Shown here piece by piece: positions 1,059 through 51,513 of a stretch of 64,000 nucleotides of DNA; within the stretch, counting starts at the first letter, position 1; each line of letters begins with the position of its first letter. The notes beneath the pieces are model-generated. The model did no database searches. It saw only the letters and a program-made list of their open reading frames with translations, and was not told the DNA's origin. The stretch comes from Candidatus Dojkabacteria bacterium. Lineage in GTDB: Bacteria; Patescibacteriota; Dojkabacteria; GCA-002793355. The DNA lies in contig CP129470.1 of assembly GCA_030583685.1 (NCBI GenBank), positions 479,007 through 543,006 of the forward strand, read 5' to 3'. Made by a program: the position numbers and the translations under genes.

Positions 1059-1084
1059 GGTAAAACTGCAACCTAAAAAGGTTT

Positions 1085-1173
1085 GGAGAGATGGCCGAGT
1101 GGCTGAAGGCGACGGTTTGCTAAACCGTTATACCCTTTTTTGGGTATCGAGGGTTCGAATCCCTCTCTCTCCG
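1085..1173 (+). tRNA. tRNA-Ser (anticodon GCU), class II with a long variable arm.
   Basis: Acceptor GGAGAGA/TCTCTCC. Anticodon stem ACGGT/ACCGT with loop TTGCTAA (anticodon GCT). Long variable arm. T-arm GAGGG-TTCGAAT-CCCTC. Discriminator G. No encoded CCA. Confidence 0.85.
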
Positions 1174-1284
1174 TATTTATTAATTCCTCTCTCTCACTAC
1201 TCAAAAGAATATCCATTTTTTTCGTTACGTTCGAGAACCGGAATTAAAAATACGGTAAGTTCTGGAGAGAGGAATTAATAAATA
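1174..1284. repeat. Perfect 20-bp inverted repeat (TATTTATTAATTCCTCTCTC ... GAGAGAGGAATTAATAAATA) flanking a 71-bp loop, directly abutting the tRNA-Ser 3' end.
   Basis: Arms at 1174-1193 and 1265-1284 are exact reverse complements. Confidence 0.6.
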
Positions 1285-38413: not shown

Positions 38414-39790
38414 CTATCTCGTAACTTCAAACGACCTCACCTGTTCCAGTAATGCCTTTGCCTCTGCATCGTTCTCAAAGTGATCCCGGACTGGCTGTAG
38501 GAGTGCGTTCAAGTACGTAACGACTGCGTTTTTCAAGTCAAGAGGAAACACCTCTTTATTGACATAGGCGGCTTCTAATTCTGCGTACGAGGTAAATGAA
38601 ATATCACCTCCATGTTCAGGTTTTCGAGAAATTACGAACAGGTCATTTTCAAGTAAGGGAGTTTCTCGCTTCAAATATTTTGCATTGAAAATGATTTGTT
38701 TACAGTAATCAAGAACCGGGTTATCCTCTGCAACTCCTTCAGGGCAGTACGCCTTGGTAATTTTTCGCTGTACCTCTTCATCAGTGTCGGTCATAAAAAT
38801 TGCCGTATCCGGTTTCGATTTACTCATTTTCATGGAGATTGTACGGTCTTGCGTATTTTCTGTGACGCGTATGGTACCCGGCTCAGGCATATCAACTTCA
38901 AGGTCGAAGTATTTCTCAACGGTCATTTGAGGTGATACGGTAATGGTACGCAATATGTCGTTGTTGGCATTTACAAAATTTATTTGAAAAGTGTCAACGT
39001 CGGTTTCGAGCTTTTCTGCATCTAATCCAATCTTTTTTTCGGAAGTATAGAACGGAACTTTGGCGTTATTGAGGATATCTTCCCGCTGGAAAAGAGTCAT
39101 TTTCTTTTCAACGGGCTTTTGCAACCCTTGTAACATGCCGTGACTGACGATGACTGGCTTCCAGTAACCAAGTTCTTCGCCAATTTCTCGTGCTAAGACA
39201 TTCACTTTCTGCTGATCAAGCCCAAGTTGCGTGACACGTGCCTTCATGACACCAAAAATATCTGCTGCTTGCATGCACGGGTAGAGGATTTGCCCTGCGG
39301 AAAGATCGTCGCTCTCGTTCCTTCCCATAATGGCGGTTGTGCGCAGTGCTCGTTTTAACGTGACAGCTTTTGCTACTTTCATAACCAACTCCCAATACCA
39401 GCGTTGGCCAACGAAATCTGAGGTCCACAAGAACTCTGTTTTTTCTACATTCATGCCGCTTGCTTTCCATACTTCAATGAAATATTTTCCGACGGTCTGA
39501 ATTTTTTCTAAATCTCCACCAAGTTTGTTGTTTAAAAAGGCAAACCAATCTGCTACCCACATGCGGAAGATAAATCCGGCGTCAATCATTTTATTGACGT
39601 TGATTGCGCGAATAATTCCTTGTGCTATGTGCATTTGTCCCGAAGGCTCAAAACCATCGTAAGTATAGAGTTGCTCTGATGATTGTAAAACTTCAGGAAG
39701 TTCGTTCGCTCCGATGAGCTCTCCACCGTGTTCGGTAATCGAAGTAATCAGGGCAATTCGTTGTTCTAGGGAAAGTTGTGACATATCCAC
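38414..39790 (-). CDS. trpS: Tryptophanyl-tRNA synthetase, archaeal/eukaryal type.
   Basis: GFEPSGQMHIAQG HIGH-region. LGLDQ. KMSKSKPDTAIFMTDTDEEVQRKITKAY closely parallels eukaryotic TrpRS [29 protein letters not shown]. 458 aa. Confidence 0.75.
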   Translation of the reverse strand: MDMSQLSLEQRIALITSITEHGGELIGANELPEVLQSSEQLYTYDGFEPSGQMHIAQGIIRAINVNKMIDAGFIFRMWVADWFAFLNNKLGGDLEKIQTVGKYFIEVWKASGMNVEKTEFLWTSDFVGQRWYWELVMKVAKAVTLKRALRTTAIMGRNESDDLSAGQILYPCMQAADIFGVMKARVTQLGLDQQKVNVLAREIGEELGYWKPVIVSHGMLQGLQKPVEKKMTLFQREDILNNAKVPFYTSEKKIGLDAEKLETDVDTFQINFVNANNDILRTITVSPQMTVEKYFDLEVDMPEPGTIRVTENTQDRTISMKMSKSKPDTAIFMTDTDEEVQRKITKAYCPEGVAEDNPVLDYCKQIIFNAKYLKRETPLLENDLFVISRKPEHGGDISFTSYAELEAAYVNKEVFPLDLKNAVVTYLNALLQPVRDHFENDAEAKALLEQVRSFEVTR

Positions 39791-39997
39791 TTACCTAATT
39801 TAACTCAGGCAAGGGCGATGGGTACGCGGTACCACCTTGCTTCCACTCAAAAAAGAGTGCTTATTACTGCTATTTCGGGCTTACCCGAAGGGTTCTACTG
39901 ACGCAGTGCGCTTTCTTCCCTTAGCTCAGGCGTGTAATTCGCCGTCAAAGCTCTGCCATATTGTAGCATTTTTCAGAAATGAGCGATATACTGATGA
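39791..39997 (-). promoter_or_regulatory. T-box riboswitch leader upstream of trpS (minus-strand RNA).
   Basis: Reverse complement of 39825-39840 is AAGGUGGUACCGCG, matching the T-box consensus AGGGUGGNACCGCG. Overlapping alternative hairpin GCAAGG...CCUUGC. Upstream extended -10 TGCTACAAT on the minus strand. Confidence 0.6.
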
Positions 39998-40804
39998 ATG
40001 GAAGAACAAACAAACAATAAAGAAACAGAAGTAAGTGTTGAGCAACCCTCTCAAGAAGGCACTGGTACCAATCAAAAAGTAATGAAATGGCCAGTGATTC
40101 TACTGGTTGTCACCTTATTTGCTGTTGTCGTGTCTTCTGTTGCAGGGTATTATGCAGGAAGAAAAAGTGCTATGTCAGAAAAGGAGCCAACTCCAACGCC
40201 ACTTGTGACAGAAACGCCAACCCCAACAGAGACGCCAGAGGTAACCTCAACCCCAACTGAAGAACCAACAGGAACTCCGACTGCTACGCCAACGCCAAGC
40301 CCAACAGTCGCAAAAGTAAAGAAAACCGGCTCAATCAAAGAATATGGGGGAGATTACACGTTGAAATTTACGTTTGAGGTGCCTGCTGATGTGGTGGTTT
40401 CTGAAACAAAAATAGGAAGCTGGAATGGAATTTTGATGCGACGCGGAACAAAAGCATTTATGGCATTTAACTTGCCGTACGAACTATACGAGCAGCAAGG
40501 CTACTCAAGCTTGACGAATGTTGCATCGGACACTATTTCTAATCTCAGAAGGGTCCGCTCGAAGAAGGTTTTTGCAAACTCGGGAAGCTACAGTTTTGCC
40601 ATTGCATATGTAACTCCAGGCTCTCTTCAAAGTGGTGCGAATTGTACCGATCCGGTTGTGTCTGAGCCAACATCATCACCGTGCGCGGTTCCTGCGTTGC
40701 AATATGGTTCAGGAATTGGTTTTAGTGCGTATTGTTCAATTGACACAACGTATCTGGCGATTTGCGATCAAGTCATGAAGACAGTGAAGGTGGTGAAGGA
40801 ATGA
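39998..40804 (+). CDS. Membrane-anchored secreted protein with a Thr/Pro-rich linker and a C-terminal globular domain.
   Basis: N-terminal TM. (T/P)-rich repeat TPTPTETPEVTSTPTEEPTGTPTATPTPSPT. Four Cys in the C-terminal domain. Confidence 0.4.
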   Translation: MEEQTNNKETEVSVEQPSQEGTGTNQKVMKWPVILLVVTLFAVVVSSVAGYYAGRKSAMSEKEPTPTPLVTETPTPTETPEVTSTPTEEPTGTPTATPTPSPTVAKVKKTGSIKEYGGDYTLKFTFEVPADVVVSETKIGSWNGILMRRGTKAFMAFNLPYELYEQQGYSSLTNVASDTISNLRRVRSKKVFANSGSYSFAIAYVTPGSLQSGANCTDPVVSEPTSSPCAVPALQYGSGIGFSAYCSIDTTYLAICDQVMKTVKVVKE

Positions 40805-41700: not shown

Positions 41701-44700
41701 ATGGACTTTCTGTCGATTCGCGGTGCGCGCGAGAACAATCTCAAGAATGTAAGTGTTGATTTACCCAAGAATAAACTGATTGTTTTTACCGGACTTTCGG
41801 GTTCAGGAAAGAGTTCCTTGGCGATGGATACCATCTATGCAGAAGGGCAACGAAAATATGTAGAAAGTTTGTCTGCGTATGCTCGGCAATTTCTCGGTGA
41901 GCTCAGAAAGCCTGATGTCGATAAAATTGAAGGGTTGTCTCCGTCAATTGCGATCGATCAGAAGACGGTGTCGCATAATCCTCGCTCGACTGTTGGAACA
42001 ATTACCGAAATTTATGATTATCTCCGTTTATTGTATGCACGGGTTGGAACGGCTCATTGTCCACAATGTGGAGCGGTTTTGACCTCGCAGACCATTGATC
42101 AGGTTGTGGATGGATTGTTAACGAAAATCAAGAAAGAGTACAAAACGGATAAAATTGTTCAGAAATTTGGCTTTCGGTTTATGATTACCGCCGTACCGAT
42201 TTCTGGTCGAAAGGGTGAGTACGAACAGGTTTTCATGAACTTGCGGAAGCAGGGATGGAACTTAGTGCGGGTCGATGGTGAGTACATCGATTTAAAACTA
42301 ATGTTACCGCAACTTGATAAATATAAGCAGCATGATATTGAAGTAGTCATTGACACCTTAAGTGTGTCGCGGCATGCTTTTGACGATGAGACGTTTTTGA
42401 AAGAGTTACGCTCTCGAATTTTTCAATCGGTTGAGGCGGCTTTGAAAATTCAACCAACCTTTGTCCGAATTATTGAAATTCGAGACCCGCAACCGGGTAT
42501 GCCTGCCAAACCCGACGTGACCTTGAACCATGATTACAGTGTGAGCAAAAGTTGTAAGCAGTGTGGTATTTCTGTTCCGGATTTTGAGCCTCGAGACTTT
42601 TCATTTAACTCTCCGCATGGAGCGTGTTCAACGTGTGACGGACTTGGGGTTATTAAGAAAATTTCGACGGAGGGAATAATTGATGGTAAGCGTTCAATTC
42701 TCGCAGGTGGCATTATGCCGTATGCAAAAATGCTTGAACGAGATTCTTATTTCCGCAGGTTGCTTGAAATTGTTTGTGATGAGCATACTATTTCAATCCA
42801 CACACCAGTGAGTATGTTAACGGAAGGGAAATTGAATACCATCCTCTATGGAACTGGCGATAAAAAATACAAAGTTACGTATTTCTCTAGCCAAGATGGT
42901 TCTGAGCGGTCCTTGTTCACAAAATATGAAGGGATTATTCCGAATCTTGAGCGTCGTTACAAAGAAACGAATTCTGATTTTATTCGAACAGAAATTGAAA
43001 AGTTTATGACGACGGTAACGTGTCCAGATTGTCAGGGAAAGCGATTAAAAGATATGGTGCTTGCAGTTACTATCGCGGGTAAGAATATTGCTGAAGTTTG
43101 CGATATGACGATTAAGGATTTCACCGCAGACGTTACTGCGTTTCCGAAAAACCTTGATGAGAAATCAATGCTGATTGCGCAGCCGGTCATTAAAGAAATC
43201 TTATTACGAAGTCAGTTCTTGTTGGATGTTGGCCTTGAGTATTTGACTGTCAGTCGAACGGCAACGACCCTTTCAGGAGGAGAAGCGCAGCGAATTCGCT
43301 TAGCAAGTCAAATTGGGACAGGATTGTCGGGGGTTATTTATGTGTTAGACGAACCTTCAATCGGACTTCATGCACGAGATCAACATCGATTGATTACGAC
43401 ACTCAAACAACTGCGGGATTTAGGCAATACAGTTATTGTTGTTGAACATGATCGAGACACGATGATGAATGCAGATGTACTAGTTGATTTTGGTAAAGGT
43501 GCGGGAAATAACGGTGGAGAAATCGTTGCAATCGGTACTCCTGAAGAAGTCATGAAGAATGTAAACTCCGTAACGGGGCCATATCTTTCAGGAAAGAAAA
43601 ACATTGCAAAAGAAGTTTCCAAAATCGTGGAAGCAAATAAAGACAAGAACAAAAAATTGACCTTGGCTCAGGTGCAACAACAACGAAATCGCGCTGCTGA
43701 TCGATACATCGAGTTGTCAGGCGCAAAAACGCACAACTTGAAAGATGTTACGGTGAAGTTCCCGTTGGGTAAATTTGTTTGTGTCACCGGTGTTTCTGGT
43801 TCAGGGAAAAGCTCCTTGGTGGTTGAAACACTTCTCCCTGCACTCAAAAAAACCTTAGGACTTCGAGTTGATAGCCCAGATACTGAATACAAAAATATCT
43901 ATATTTCCGATGTCGTAGACAAAATGTTGTACATTGATCAATCACCTATTGGTCGAACGCCTCGAAGTAATCCAGCAACCTATACAAAGGTGTTTGATGA
44001 TATCAGAGAATTATTTGCGCAAACAAAAGATTCAAAAGTCCGCGGCTATACGGCGAGTCGTTTTAGTTTCAATTTGAAAGGTGGACGATGCGAAGCGTGT
44101 AAAGGAGAGGGCAAAATCAAAATTGAGATGCAGTTCATGCCAGATGTGTATATCAATTGTGACGTTTGTCACGGGAAACGATATGTGTCAGAAGTATTGG
44201 ATGTTTTGTACAAAGGCAAGAATGTCTCCGAAGTACTGAATATGTCTGTTGACGAAGCTGCCGGTTTCTTTTCAGAAATTTCCTCAATTCGCGAGAAGTT
44301 TGAAGTGTTGCAGCAGGTAGGACTTGGTTATTTAAAAATTGGAGAACCTGCCCCGATGTTGTCAGGTGGAGAGGCACAGCGAGTTAAGTTGTCTGCAGAA
44401 CTTGGTCGTCGCTCAACGGGTAAGACCATTTATATTCTTGATGAACCGACAACGGGGTTGCATTTCGCAGATATCGAAAAGTTGGTTGCAGTACTCAAAA
44501 CCCTCGTTGCAGGCGGGAATAGCGTGTTTGTTATTGAGCACAACCTTGATTTTATCGCAGAAGCTGATCATTTGATTGATCTTGGTCCTGAAGGGGGAAG
44601 TGGCGGTGGACAGATTATTGCCACAGGAAGTGTTGCGGAAATCCGTAAAAATCCAAAAAGCTGGACCGGAAGGATGATGAAAGAGGAATTACATAGGTAA
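41701..44700 (+). CDS. uvrA: Excinuclease ABC subunit A.
   Basis: Two ABC modules ([22 protein letters not shown]). ABC signatures LSGGEAQR. Zinc-finger Cys clusters. 999 aa. TGTATAAT at 41686-41693. Confidence 0.95.
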
Positions 44701-50863: not shown

Positions 50864-50949
50864 AAGCAGTATGATAGCACAAAAAGGACAGTTCAGGTGA
50901 AGTTTGCGTTACTTTGTGCTATAATACACCTGTCTCGACCACACTTTCG

Positions 50950-51371
50950 GGGGTGATCGGCTTAGACGGTTGTTCGTTGAAAGAAGAAGCCAAGCGGGCT
51001 GATATCCCGTACTCCTATCAAAGCACATAAAGTGCCAAACAAACCCTTTCTGCAAAAATTGCTAACGCACTTAACAGCGTCGTTGCGGCTTTCAGCCGTC
51101 CCGCAGCTGCTTTGAACGTTATGCAAATTGCATAAGTCATTGCGACTTTCCTTAGTGTCCCTCCTTTGCCTGACAAGCGGACAATAAGGAGTAATAAAGT
51201 TCAGGCCGACGTATTCTCGAGCTCCTCTGTGAGAATACTGTTGTATACGTGAGGGCGAGTGTTACTTTTTTGCCTCGGTTTTAGGTGACACTTCGTATAT
51301 AATCAAGGCTGTCTTGGGAGAATCTTCTTTTAGAAAACAGCTGCACAGGGGTTCGATTCCCCTCACCTCCA
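50950..51371 (+). ncRNA. ssrA: tmRNA (ssrA).
   Basis: 5' GGGGGUGAUCGGCUUAGACGG. 3' T-arm GGGGUUCGAUUCCCC. Acceptor GGGGGUG/CACCUCC with a G3:U70 wobble (Ala identity). Discriminator A. Internal ORF with Ala-rich tag candidates. Extended -10 TGCTATAAT at 50917-50925. Confidence 0.85.
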
Positions 51372-51513
51372 TTTTGGAAATTTACGGTGCAACCGTAGAT
51401 TTTCAAAATAGAACAGAGAATCGAACCGTAGGTTCTCTTGCGAATTCCTTGCTTATGCGATTTTCGAATGAGCAATACAAAGCCCGATAAAGTTTCAATG
51501 TATCCGAAGTATT

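Follow-up and report, generated by a model that had tools for sequence, protein, structure and literature searches.

Evidence for a tyrosine-specific T-box leader with an ultrashort Stem I and probable translational control upstream of an archaeal/eukaryal-type tyrS in Candidatus Dojkabacteria

Introduction

T-boxes with an ultrashort or intermediate Stem I that act on translation have been described from Actinobacteria, chiefly upstream of ileS, where they sequester the Shine-Dalgarno (SD) sequence (PMC7583486, PMC11297988). Members of the ultrashort class have a Stem I without the elbow platform, keep Stem II along with Stem IIA/B as compensation, and switch between an antisequestrator and a sequestrator (PMC7583486, PMC11297988); the ileS T-box of Mycobacterium tuberculosis also has an A-minor adenosine, a linker pseudoknot pairing and a conserved RAG motif (PMC11297988). 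Transcriptional T-boxes generally need a long Stem I with its elbow platform (PMC7583486, section 6.2). The TBDB database confined its class II model to Actinobacteria, adding class I hits whose Stem I was truncated (PMC7778990). Here we analysed a stretch of 64,000 nucleotides from a Candidatus Dojkabacteria bacterium (contig CP129470.1; the whole stretch is called the window hereafter), in which positions 39791-39997 form the entire gap (207 bases) separating two divergent genes. We estimate a probability of about three in four that this intergenic region encodes the 5' leader of the mRNA of tyrS, the tyrosyl-tRNA synthetase gene on the minus strand, and that the leader is a T-box for tRNA-Tyr that has an ultrashort Stem I and acts on translation.

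Judged from published descriptions, the window leader is like the actinobacterial ileS T-box in having a Stem I without the distal elbow platform, a basal kink-turn (K-turn), an S-turn motif in Stem II, a Stem IIA and a linker, followed by the RAG motif, Stem III and a discriminator composed of helix A1, a bulge and helix A2. Both lack a terminator, in both a competing helix, predicted in the window leader, overlaps the translation start, and in both the length up to where A1 ends is about 145 nt. The A and AGC of the window linker and its RAG correspond to the M. tuberculosis elements by position only. The window leader differs in combining a UAC specifier with tyrS, a host of the Candidate Phyla Radiation (CPR) and an enzyme of archaeal/eukaryal type. 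Furthermore, its sequestered segment is not a clear SD, in a genome that seems SD-poor, and it carries no insertions in Stem III or A2. The typical occurrence, before ileS in Actinobacteria, is not shared, which is a feature of distribution and not of structure.

Like the window leader, the canonical class I tyrS T-box, such as that of Bacillus subtilis tyrS, reads UAC followed by a purine and matches A73 with its UGGU bulge; Stem II, Stem IIA, Stem III and the T-box sequence are common to both. The window leader, however, lacks about 74 Stem I positions, including the AG bulge and the distal loop platform, and has no terminator. A previous interpretation made from the letters of the window without database searches (the sequence-only reading) had described a short, glyQS-like leader. 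The short Stem I holds, and the leader shares its brevity and discriminator core with the glyQS T-box; the glyQS-like architecture does not hold, because the window leader keeps Stem II and Stem IIA, both of which glyQS lacks, and truncates Stem I instead. The same reading considered a T-box before an archaeal/eukaryal-type synthetase to be a chimeric arrangement. The arrangement is real, but it has a precedent in Bacillus cereus, where a T box controls lysK, the gene of an archaeal-type class I LysRS (PMC2916919). In both cases a bacterial T-box governs an archaeal-type synthetase, although the amino acid, the enzyme family and the host phylum differ. The window leader is a tyrosine, CPR and archaeal-type TyrRS case of the already known ultrashort-Stem-I, probably translational T-box, and does not overturn the known T-box mechanism.

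Results and discussion

A conserved T-box fold precedes tyrS

That the element is a T-box, and a tyrosine-specific one, is near certain, and this identity is settled by comparative evidence and not by the T-box motif alone. The leader RNA, read from the minus strand, is GGAAGCAAGGUGGUACCGCGUACCC. We drew tyrS orthologue loci from GTDB genomes and from assemblies encoding close homologues, and a homologous leader precedes tyrS in nine of them (L002, L003, L006, L201, L204, L208, L209, L211 and L212), whose TyrRS proteins are 62-87% identical to that of the window. Across the nine-leader alignment, 99.6% of the cells pair in a 31-pair T-box fold, and 11 pairs show compensatory changes: three in Stem I, three in lower Stem II, one in upper Stem II, three in Stem III and one in A1. 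None of 500 shuffled controls reached the observed values of pairing and compensation, and moving the partners by 1-3 columns reduced pairing to 28-49%. Folding of the alignment by RNAalifold without guidance recovered Stem I, Stem II, Stem IIA, Stem III and A1. A covariance model built from the tyrS leaders (R1) detected a single site in the window, at 39807-39954 on the minus strand, with 170 bits, and found no T-box in any of the archaeal (DPANN) tyrS loci that were scanned.

The Rfam T-box model RF00230 matches 39957-39808 on the minus strand with 42.6 bits over the full model (1-219), at an E-value of 4.4e-8 in a scan of 601 nt and 4.7e-6 over the whole window. This match surfaced only when results were reported by E-value; at gathering thresholds, which for RF00230 is 93 bits, the Rfam scan of the window returned no T-box and only tmRNA (transfer-messenger RNA) and tRNA. 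The low score arises because 74 consensus positions of Stem I are deleted, with 5 nt in their place. Only distal Stem I is deleted in this alignment; the basal K-turn, Stem II, Stem IIA, Stem III and the T-box/antiterminator all align. The Rfam E-value, our own covariance model and the 11 covarying pairs in nine homologues bear out the T-box leader that the sequence-only reading had placed upstream of a synthetase gene.

The motif on which that reading leaned is less telling. AGGUGGUACCGCG at 39837-39825 (minus strand) is the sole match to RGGTGGNACCGCG in 64 kb when at most one mismatch is allowed. Shuffled sequences gave a mean of 0.15 matches, with at least one match in 14 out of 100 shuffles, so the 13-nt motif by itself is weak evidence. 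The T-box sequence AAGGUGGUACCGCG (39838-39825) agrees with the consensus AGGGUGGNACCGCG at 13 of 14 positions, not at 14 as had been counted, and the mismatch is a paired A-U in helix A1. It also lies much closer to the gene than the roughly 150 nt first given, at 41-54 nt upstream of the ATG (39784).

The regulated gene encodes a tyrosyl-tRNA synthetase

The open reading frame (ORF) at 38414-39784 on the minus strand, with its start ATG at 39784-39782, encodes an archaeal/eukaryal-type tyrosyl-tRNA synthetase of 456 aa. The NCBIfam tyrosine--tRNA ligase equivalog NF006330 scores 315 bits against it, over a cutoff of 220, whereas the best trpS model, TIGR00233, reaches 93 bits and stays below its cutoff of 177. 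PF00579, the Pfam family common to TrpRS and TyrRS, also matches. All 48 sequence matches in the PDB are TyrRS of eukaryal or archaeal type, among them the enzymes of Plasmodium, Leishmania, Aeropyrum, Pyrococcus and M. jannaschii. By model scores and structural relatives the ORF is tyrS, not the trpS that the sequence-only reading had named, while the archaeal/eukaryal type that it had assigned to the synthetase is upheld by all PDB relatives. The product is 100% identical to a 456-aa protein, QY312_02475, from a Candidatus Dojkabacteria metagenome-assembled genome, which settles the start as ATG 39784 and assigns the window to the CPR. Beyond the CPR, the nearest relatives of the window TyrRS belong to DPANN archaea (50-60% identity).

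The enzyme has some peculiarities of its own. An insertion of about 90 aa, at residues ~228-317, separates the Rossmann-fold half from the KMSKS loop and splits the Pfam and PDB matches into two stretches (residues 3-227 and 318-442). It is common to the closest ~20 homologues and is missing from the ~375-aa TyrRS of other Dojkabacteria. Some other Dojkabacteria TyrRS (P0033, P0038, P0042 and others) carry an extra tRNA-binding domain, PF01588 (EMAP/Myf-like), and at loci L007-L010 and L013 this domain is encoded in frame, 5' of the tyrS catalytic domain.

The specifier reads tyrosine

Stem I can form with a specifier loop, as the sequence-only reading had left to be checked: a K-turn is followed by a 4-bp helix and a terminal loop of 7 nt, AAUUACA (39939-39933, minus strand). 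The specifier codon in this loop is UAC (Tyr; 39936-39934), followed by the conserved purine A 39933, and UAC-A is invariant in the terminal loop of the nine leaders. The expected tryptophan codon UGG is found nowhere in Stem I. In metagenomic ultrashort T-boxes the equivalent loop register, a codon followed by A and the helix, holds AUC before ileS, GUC before valS and GAC before aspS. This agreement between register and downstream synthetase provides an independent check on how the specifier loop is read. R1, too, recovers metagenomic ileS leaders, with AUC in the equivalent hairpin loop. At the other end of the tRNA, the UGGU of the T-box bulge predicts pairing with a 3' end ACCA, i.e., a discriminator base A73.

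tRNA scans of 38 related loci found one tRNA-Tyr only, in L024, which comes from a related CPR genome. It has a GUA anticodon and A73, and would fit both the UAC and the UGGU of the window leader. At positions 2450-3001 of L024, a T-box-like element that scores 41 bits, with UAC as specifier and UGGC as bulge, comes first, then the tRNA-Tyr(GUA) gene, and then tyrS. This tRNA-Tyr has C1-G72, a 5-nt variable loop in archaeal/eukaryal style (not the long-arm bacterial style), A73 and an encoded CCA; the C of the L024 bulge mismatches its A73.

A canonical, long-Stem-I T-box is present in another related CPR genome (L018, 2540-2816), with a UAC specifier and 99.5 bits against RF00230, above the gathering score, 185 nt 5' of an archaeal-type tyrS. 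Hence both canonical and ultrashort forms coexist in the lineage, and the ultrashort leader probably descends, as far as these sequences tell, from a canonical tyrosine T-box within it.

Anatomy of the leader

The leader of the tyrS mRNA is about 170 nt long (~39953-39785, minus strand), of which ~145 nt reach to the end of A1. An extended -10 element, TGCTACAAT, lies at 39968-39960 on the minus strand, where the sequence-only reading had noted it. It is of the TGnTAnAAT type and, in 10 of 10 homologous loci, ends exactly 8 nt before the base pair of Stem I; the same type of -10 hexamer precedes many window genes. Given this fixed spacing, a longer Stem I cannot hide upstream, and from the promoter position transcription is inferred to start at ~39952-39954, 1-3 nt before Stem I.

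The pairs of the fold were verified on the window sequence, and all features below are on the minus strand. Ultrashort Stem I (39951-39924) is delimited by the Rfam alignment, the compensatory changes and RNAalifold. At its base, 39951-39950 pair with 39925-39924 in a GC/GC helix; next comes a GA motif that resembles a K-turn (UUUGA 39949-39945 opposite UGA 39928-39926), and then the 4-bp helix (39943-39940 with 39932-39929) below the specifier loop. This helix is paired in 100% of cases, and three of its four pairs show compensatory changes (GC/AU, CG/UA).

Stem II (39922-39888) has a lower helix (39922-39918 with 39892-39888), an internal loop that by its sequence motif is of the S-turn type (GAA 39915-39913 opposite AGUA 39899-39896), and an upper helix (39911-39908 with 39904-39901). 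Every leader forms all five lower pairs, and compensatory changes affect three of these. The upper helix covaries too and is not of the same length in all leaders; the segments AGUAGAA and GAAGAAA of Stem II are conserved. The Stem IIA hairpin CGGG-UAAG-CCCG (39887-39876) aligns to Stem IIA of RF00230 and has an F-box-like CCCGAAA on its 3' side (region 39887-39873). It is nearly invariant, so covariation is uninformative there; the residues of its loop and of the linker are invariant across leaders. The linker (39875-39860) contains an invariant A (39873) and an invariant AGC (39871-39869) and runs into the RAG motif, AAG (39862-39860), which reads R-A-G in nine of nine leaders directly 5' of Stem III. 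Stem III (39859-39844; CACUC/GAGUG with a loop of U6) has five pairs, all 100% paired and three with compensatory changes.

The antisequestrator, an antiterminator-like element that serves as the discriminator (39840-39809, by Rfam alignment), consists of helix A1 with six pairs (39840-39835 with 39814-39809), the 7-nt T-box bulge UGGUACC (39834-39828), and helix A2 with three pairs and the loop UACCCAU (39827-39825 with 39817-39815). A1 and A2 are 100% paired in the nine leaders. A1 is invariant apart from one compensatory change from G-C to A-U in L211.

A predicted sequestrator and its competitors

By analogy with the established T-box mechanism, the GUA anticodon of tRNA-Tyr would pair with UAC, and Stem II would assist this pairing, making up for the missing distal platform that binds the tRNA elbow. 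When tRNA-Tyr is uncharged, its 3' end ACCA would pair with UGGU in the bulge and stabilise the antisequestrator. When the tRNA is charged or absent, the 3' strand of A1 (CCCUUGCC) would pair with the ~20 nt directly before the AUG, and the resulting hairpin would block ribosome access, so that a fall in tRNA-Tyr charging would be required for TyrRS synthesis. Regulation would thus act at translation initiation, not at transcription termination.

The predicted sequestrator is a hairpin of 11 bp (39815-39787, minus strand) in which CCCUUGCCUGA (39815-39805) pairs with UUAGGUAAG-GG (39798-39787). It takes up the 3' strand of A1, covers -31 to -4 relative to the AUG and includes the purine-rich AGGUAAG (39796-39790). 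The sequence-only reading had looked for the alternative helix in GCAAGG...CCUUGC, which is actually helix A1 of the antisequestrator fold itself; folding both states, as it had advised, identified the competing helix as the one given here. The sequestrator hairpin belongs to the minimum free energy (MFE) structure of the whole window leader. With identical decoding-domain helices, the sequestrator state reaches -39.1 kcal/mol and the antisequestrator state -34.6 kcal/mol, a difference of 4.5 kcal/mol in favour of the former. This is consistent with a switch that is OFF by default and requires tRNA to go ON.

The same tendency is seen among the homologues. For eight of eight distinct leaders, folding of the 3' domain to its MFE joins the 3' strand of A1 to the region before the AUG, and the free fold of this domain is 4.2-10.3 kcal/mol, typically about 4-9 kcal/mol, more stable than the fold in which the antisequestrator is enforced. 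The partner is UUAGGUAAG (AGGUAAG type) in most leaders, UUCUGGCG in L006 and UUCGGAC in L211, while the distance from the 3' end of A1 to the AUG is constant at 24-26 nt. Enforcing the antisequestrator on the 3' domain alone raises the unpaired probability of positions -20 to -1 in eight of eight leaders. The terminator scan found no terminator-like site over the 3' end of the leader in the window, and no U-run lies 3' of the leader in the window or in any of the nine homologues. The sequence-only reading had already noted the missing U-tract and considered translational regulation possible. Control is probably translational, and occlusion of the start region is, on these folding models, the likely means.

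A number of observations weigh against a translational T-box at this locus. The RF00230 score of 42.6 bits is less than half of the gathering score. No tRNA-Tyr gene was found in the window, where the tRNA scan detected a tRNA-Ser as the sole tRNA. The opening of the 3' domain is modest, e.g., from 0.43 to 0.45 in L003, and in whole-leader partition functions with the antisequestrator enforced, the start region opens in three of eight leaders and is unchanged or lower in five. When the sequestrator was imposed in a fixed register on the nine-leader alignment (A3), it showed no covariation and 77% pairing, no better than shuffles; L006, L212 and L211 use another partner sequence, which accounts for this failure. 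The L006 hairpin ahead of the AUG shares no more than ~4 nt with A1. Moreover, among the 43 window ORFs of at least 200 aa, a core SD at -16 to -5 occurs in one, versus a background of 6.9%, while a TAnAnT hexamer ends 3-10 nt before the ATG in 18 of the 43, versus 3.6% of all ATGs. On this sequence evidence the genome appears largely leaderless and SD-poor, which sits uneasily with initiation at an internal AUG. In such an SD-poor genome, the block is probably an occlusion of the start region and not the masking of a classical SD, and the AGGUAAG of the sequestrator may not be a classical SD. Lastly, the leader is dispensable, as five relatives do without it (L001, L202, L203, L206 and L207); there a TATAAT-like box directly precedes tyrS, from which we take the gene to be leaderless.

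Instances of a TATAAT-like box near the ATG are found elsewhere in the window at 41701(+), 35672(+), 7077(+), 19290(-) and 33547(-). The set of Dojkabacteria loci without a T-box comprises those five relatives together with L004/L210, L011 and L015, with TyrRS 66-75% identical to that of the window. Judging from this distribution, the leader has been gained or lost repeatedly among close Dojkabacteria lineages. The intergenic region 39785-39997 (213 nt) is 100% identical between the window and L201, versus 91% for the tyrS coding sequences. Over their first 450 nt these are almost the same, identity is 82% in the middle third, and the ~90-aa insertion holds most of the divergence. Either a leader under strong constraint or a recent recombination event could explain the identical intergenic region.

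Among the competing explanations, a post-transcriptional switch that does not work through ribosome access, but through an RNase site, Rho-dependent termination or processing to a leaderless mRNA, is unlikely and yet deserves some weight. It would suit a genome that appears largely leaderless and SD-poor and the weak or inconsistent opening of the start region in silico, and RNase III is reported to cut a T-box leader in S. aureus (PMC7913692). There is, however, no specific evidence for cleavage or a Rho site, and a sequestrator model would predict both the constant spacing of 24-26 nt and the base pairing, found in the folds of every homologue, between the A1 3' strand and the segment before the AUG.

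Still less probable is a classical T-box with premature transcription termination, in which the hairpin 39815-39787 would be the intrinsic terminator. The majority of known T-boxes do act on transcription (PMC7583486), the competing hairpin has 11 bp and is stable, and other metagenomic T-boxes with an ultrashort Stem I do carry a hairpin followed by U6. At the window locus, however, the hairpin is followed by AUAUGUCACAAC, without a U-run, and the terminator scan is empty there; a U-tract is absent from the nine homologues as well, where the hairpin's 3' strand abuts the start codon in every case. A transcription terminator was rejected for want of a U-tract.

It is very improbable that the translational T-box proposed here is instead a decaying, non-functional remnant or a chance resemblance. 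A score below the Rfam gathering threshold, a truncated Stem I, and close relatives that have lost the leader and have a promoter directly at the ATG might suggest decay, but the 11 compensatory pairs and 99.6% pairing persist across lineages with TyrRS down to 62% identity, the specifier, T-box bulge, RAG and promoter spacing are invariant, and the truncation matches a known functional class. Finally, a tryptophan-specific, glyQS-like T-box controlling trpS, for which only the shared PF00579 family and weak, sub-threshold trpS matches speak, can practically be dismissed and was rejected, as the tyrS equivalog passes its cutoff where the trpS models fail, all PDB relatives are TyrRS, and Stem I lacks UGG and presents UAC-A in its loop, with a Stem II and Stem IIA that set the leader apart from glyQS.

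Other ultrashort T-boxes and wider significance

A tyrosine T-box controlling an archaeal-type tyrS by start-region occlusion would add tyrosine and the CPR to an ultrashort-Stem-I translational class known from actinobacterial ileS. A full-text literature search found no T-boxes linked to CPR, Patescibacteria or individual CPR phyla, though its coverage is incomplete and the result is not proof of novelty. Because Rfam annotation at gathering thresholds misses such leaders, the riboswitch content of CPR genomes is probably under-counted. The leader would be a very compact natural tyrosine T-box (~145 nt) that may recognise an archaeal-like tRNA-Tyr, and could serve to compare decoding without elbow contact. 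It also poses the problem of how translation can be switched by a riboswitch in a genome that is SD-poor and rich in leaderless mRNAs.

We searched metagenomes with the pattern CGGGTAAGCCCG...GGTGGNACCGC, which proved generic for T-boxes of many phyla. No further tyrosine leaders were among the matches listed, which did include other ultrashort T-boxes. Six metagenome contigs (L130, L179, L116, L129, L113 and L094) have T-boxes with an equally short Stem I before aspS, ileS or valS, and their terminal loops carry GAC, AUC, AAC or GUC, each followed by A; the AspRS of L094 is from Candidatus Falkowbacteria (CPR). Each of the six is succeeded by a strong hairpin that takes in the 3' strand of A1, ends in U6 and resembles an intrinsic terminator. 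Such terminator-coupled ultrashort T-boxes sit awkwardly with the elbow-platform requirement stated for transcriptional T-boxes (PMC7583486, section 6.2) and, if true, would contradict their need for a long Stem I.

A broader scenario, which is speculative when taken as a whole and rests mostly on sequences outside the window, would join these observations. The CPR may have their own radiation of minimal T-boxes with the specifier in a terminal hairpin loop. The Dojkabacteria form might have arisen from a canonical tyrosine T-box (cf. L018) after acquisition of an archaeal-type tyrS, possibly acquired along with a tRNA-Tyr that is archaeal-like (C1-G72 and a short variable arm, cf. L024), and might act as an SD-independent translational switch in an otherwise leaderless-mRNA genome, while related CPR or uncultured lineages would couple the ultrashort Stem I with intrinsic terminators.

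Additional features of the window

The divergent neighbour of tyrS, a plus-strand ORF at 39998-40804, encodes a Thr/Pro-rich membrane-anchored protein. The tmRNA gene lies at 50949-51374(+) (426 nt; RF00023, 79 bits). Compared with the 374 positions of the model, it contains a large insertion in the part that follows the tag-reading frame. The tRNA-Ser(GCU) gene is at 1084-1174(+). Antisense to it, the plastid 3'UTR family RF04351 matches 1120-1173(-) just below threshold (67.2 versus 68 bits), almost certainly an artefact of the tRNA-like sequence.

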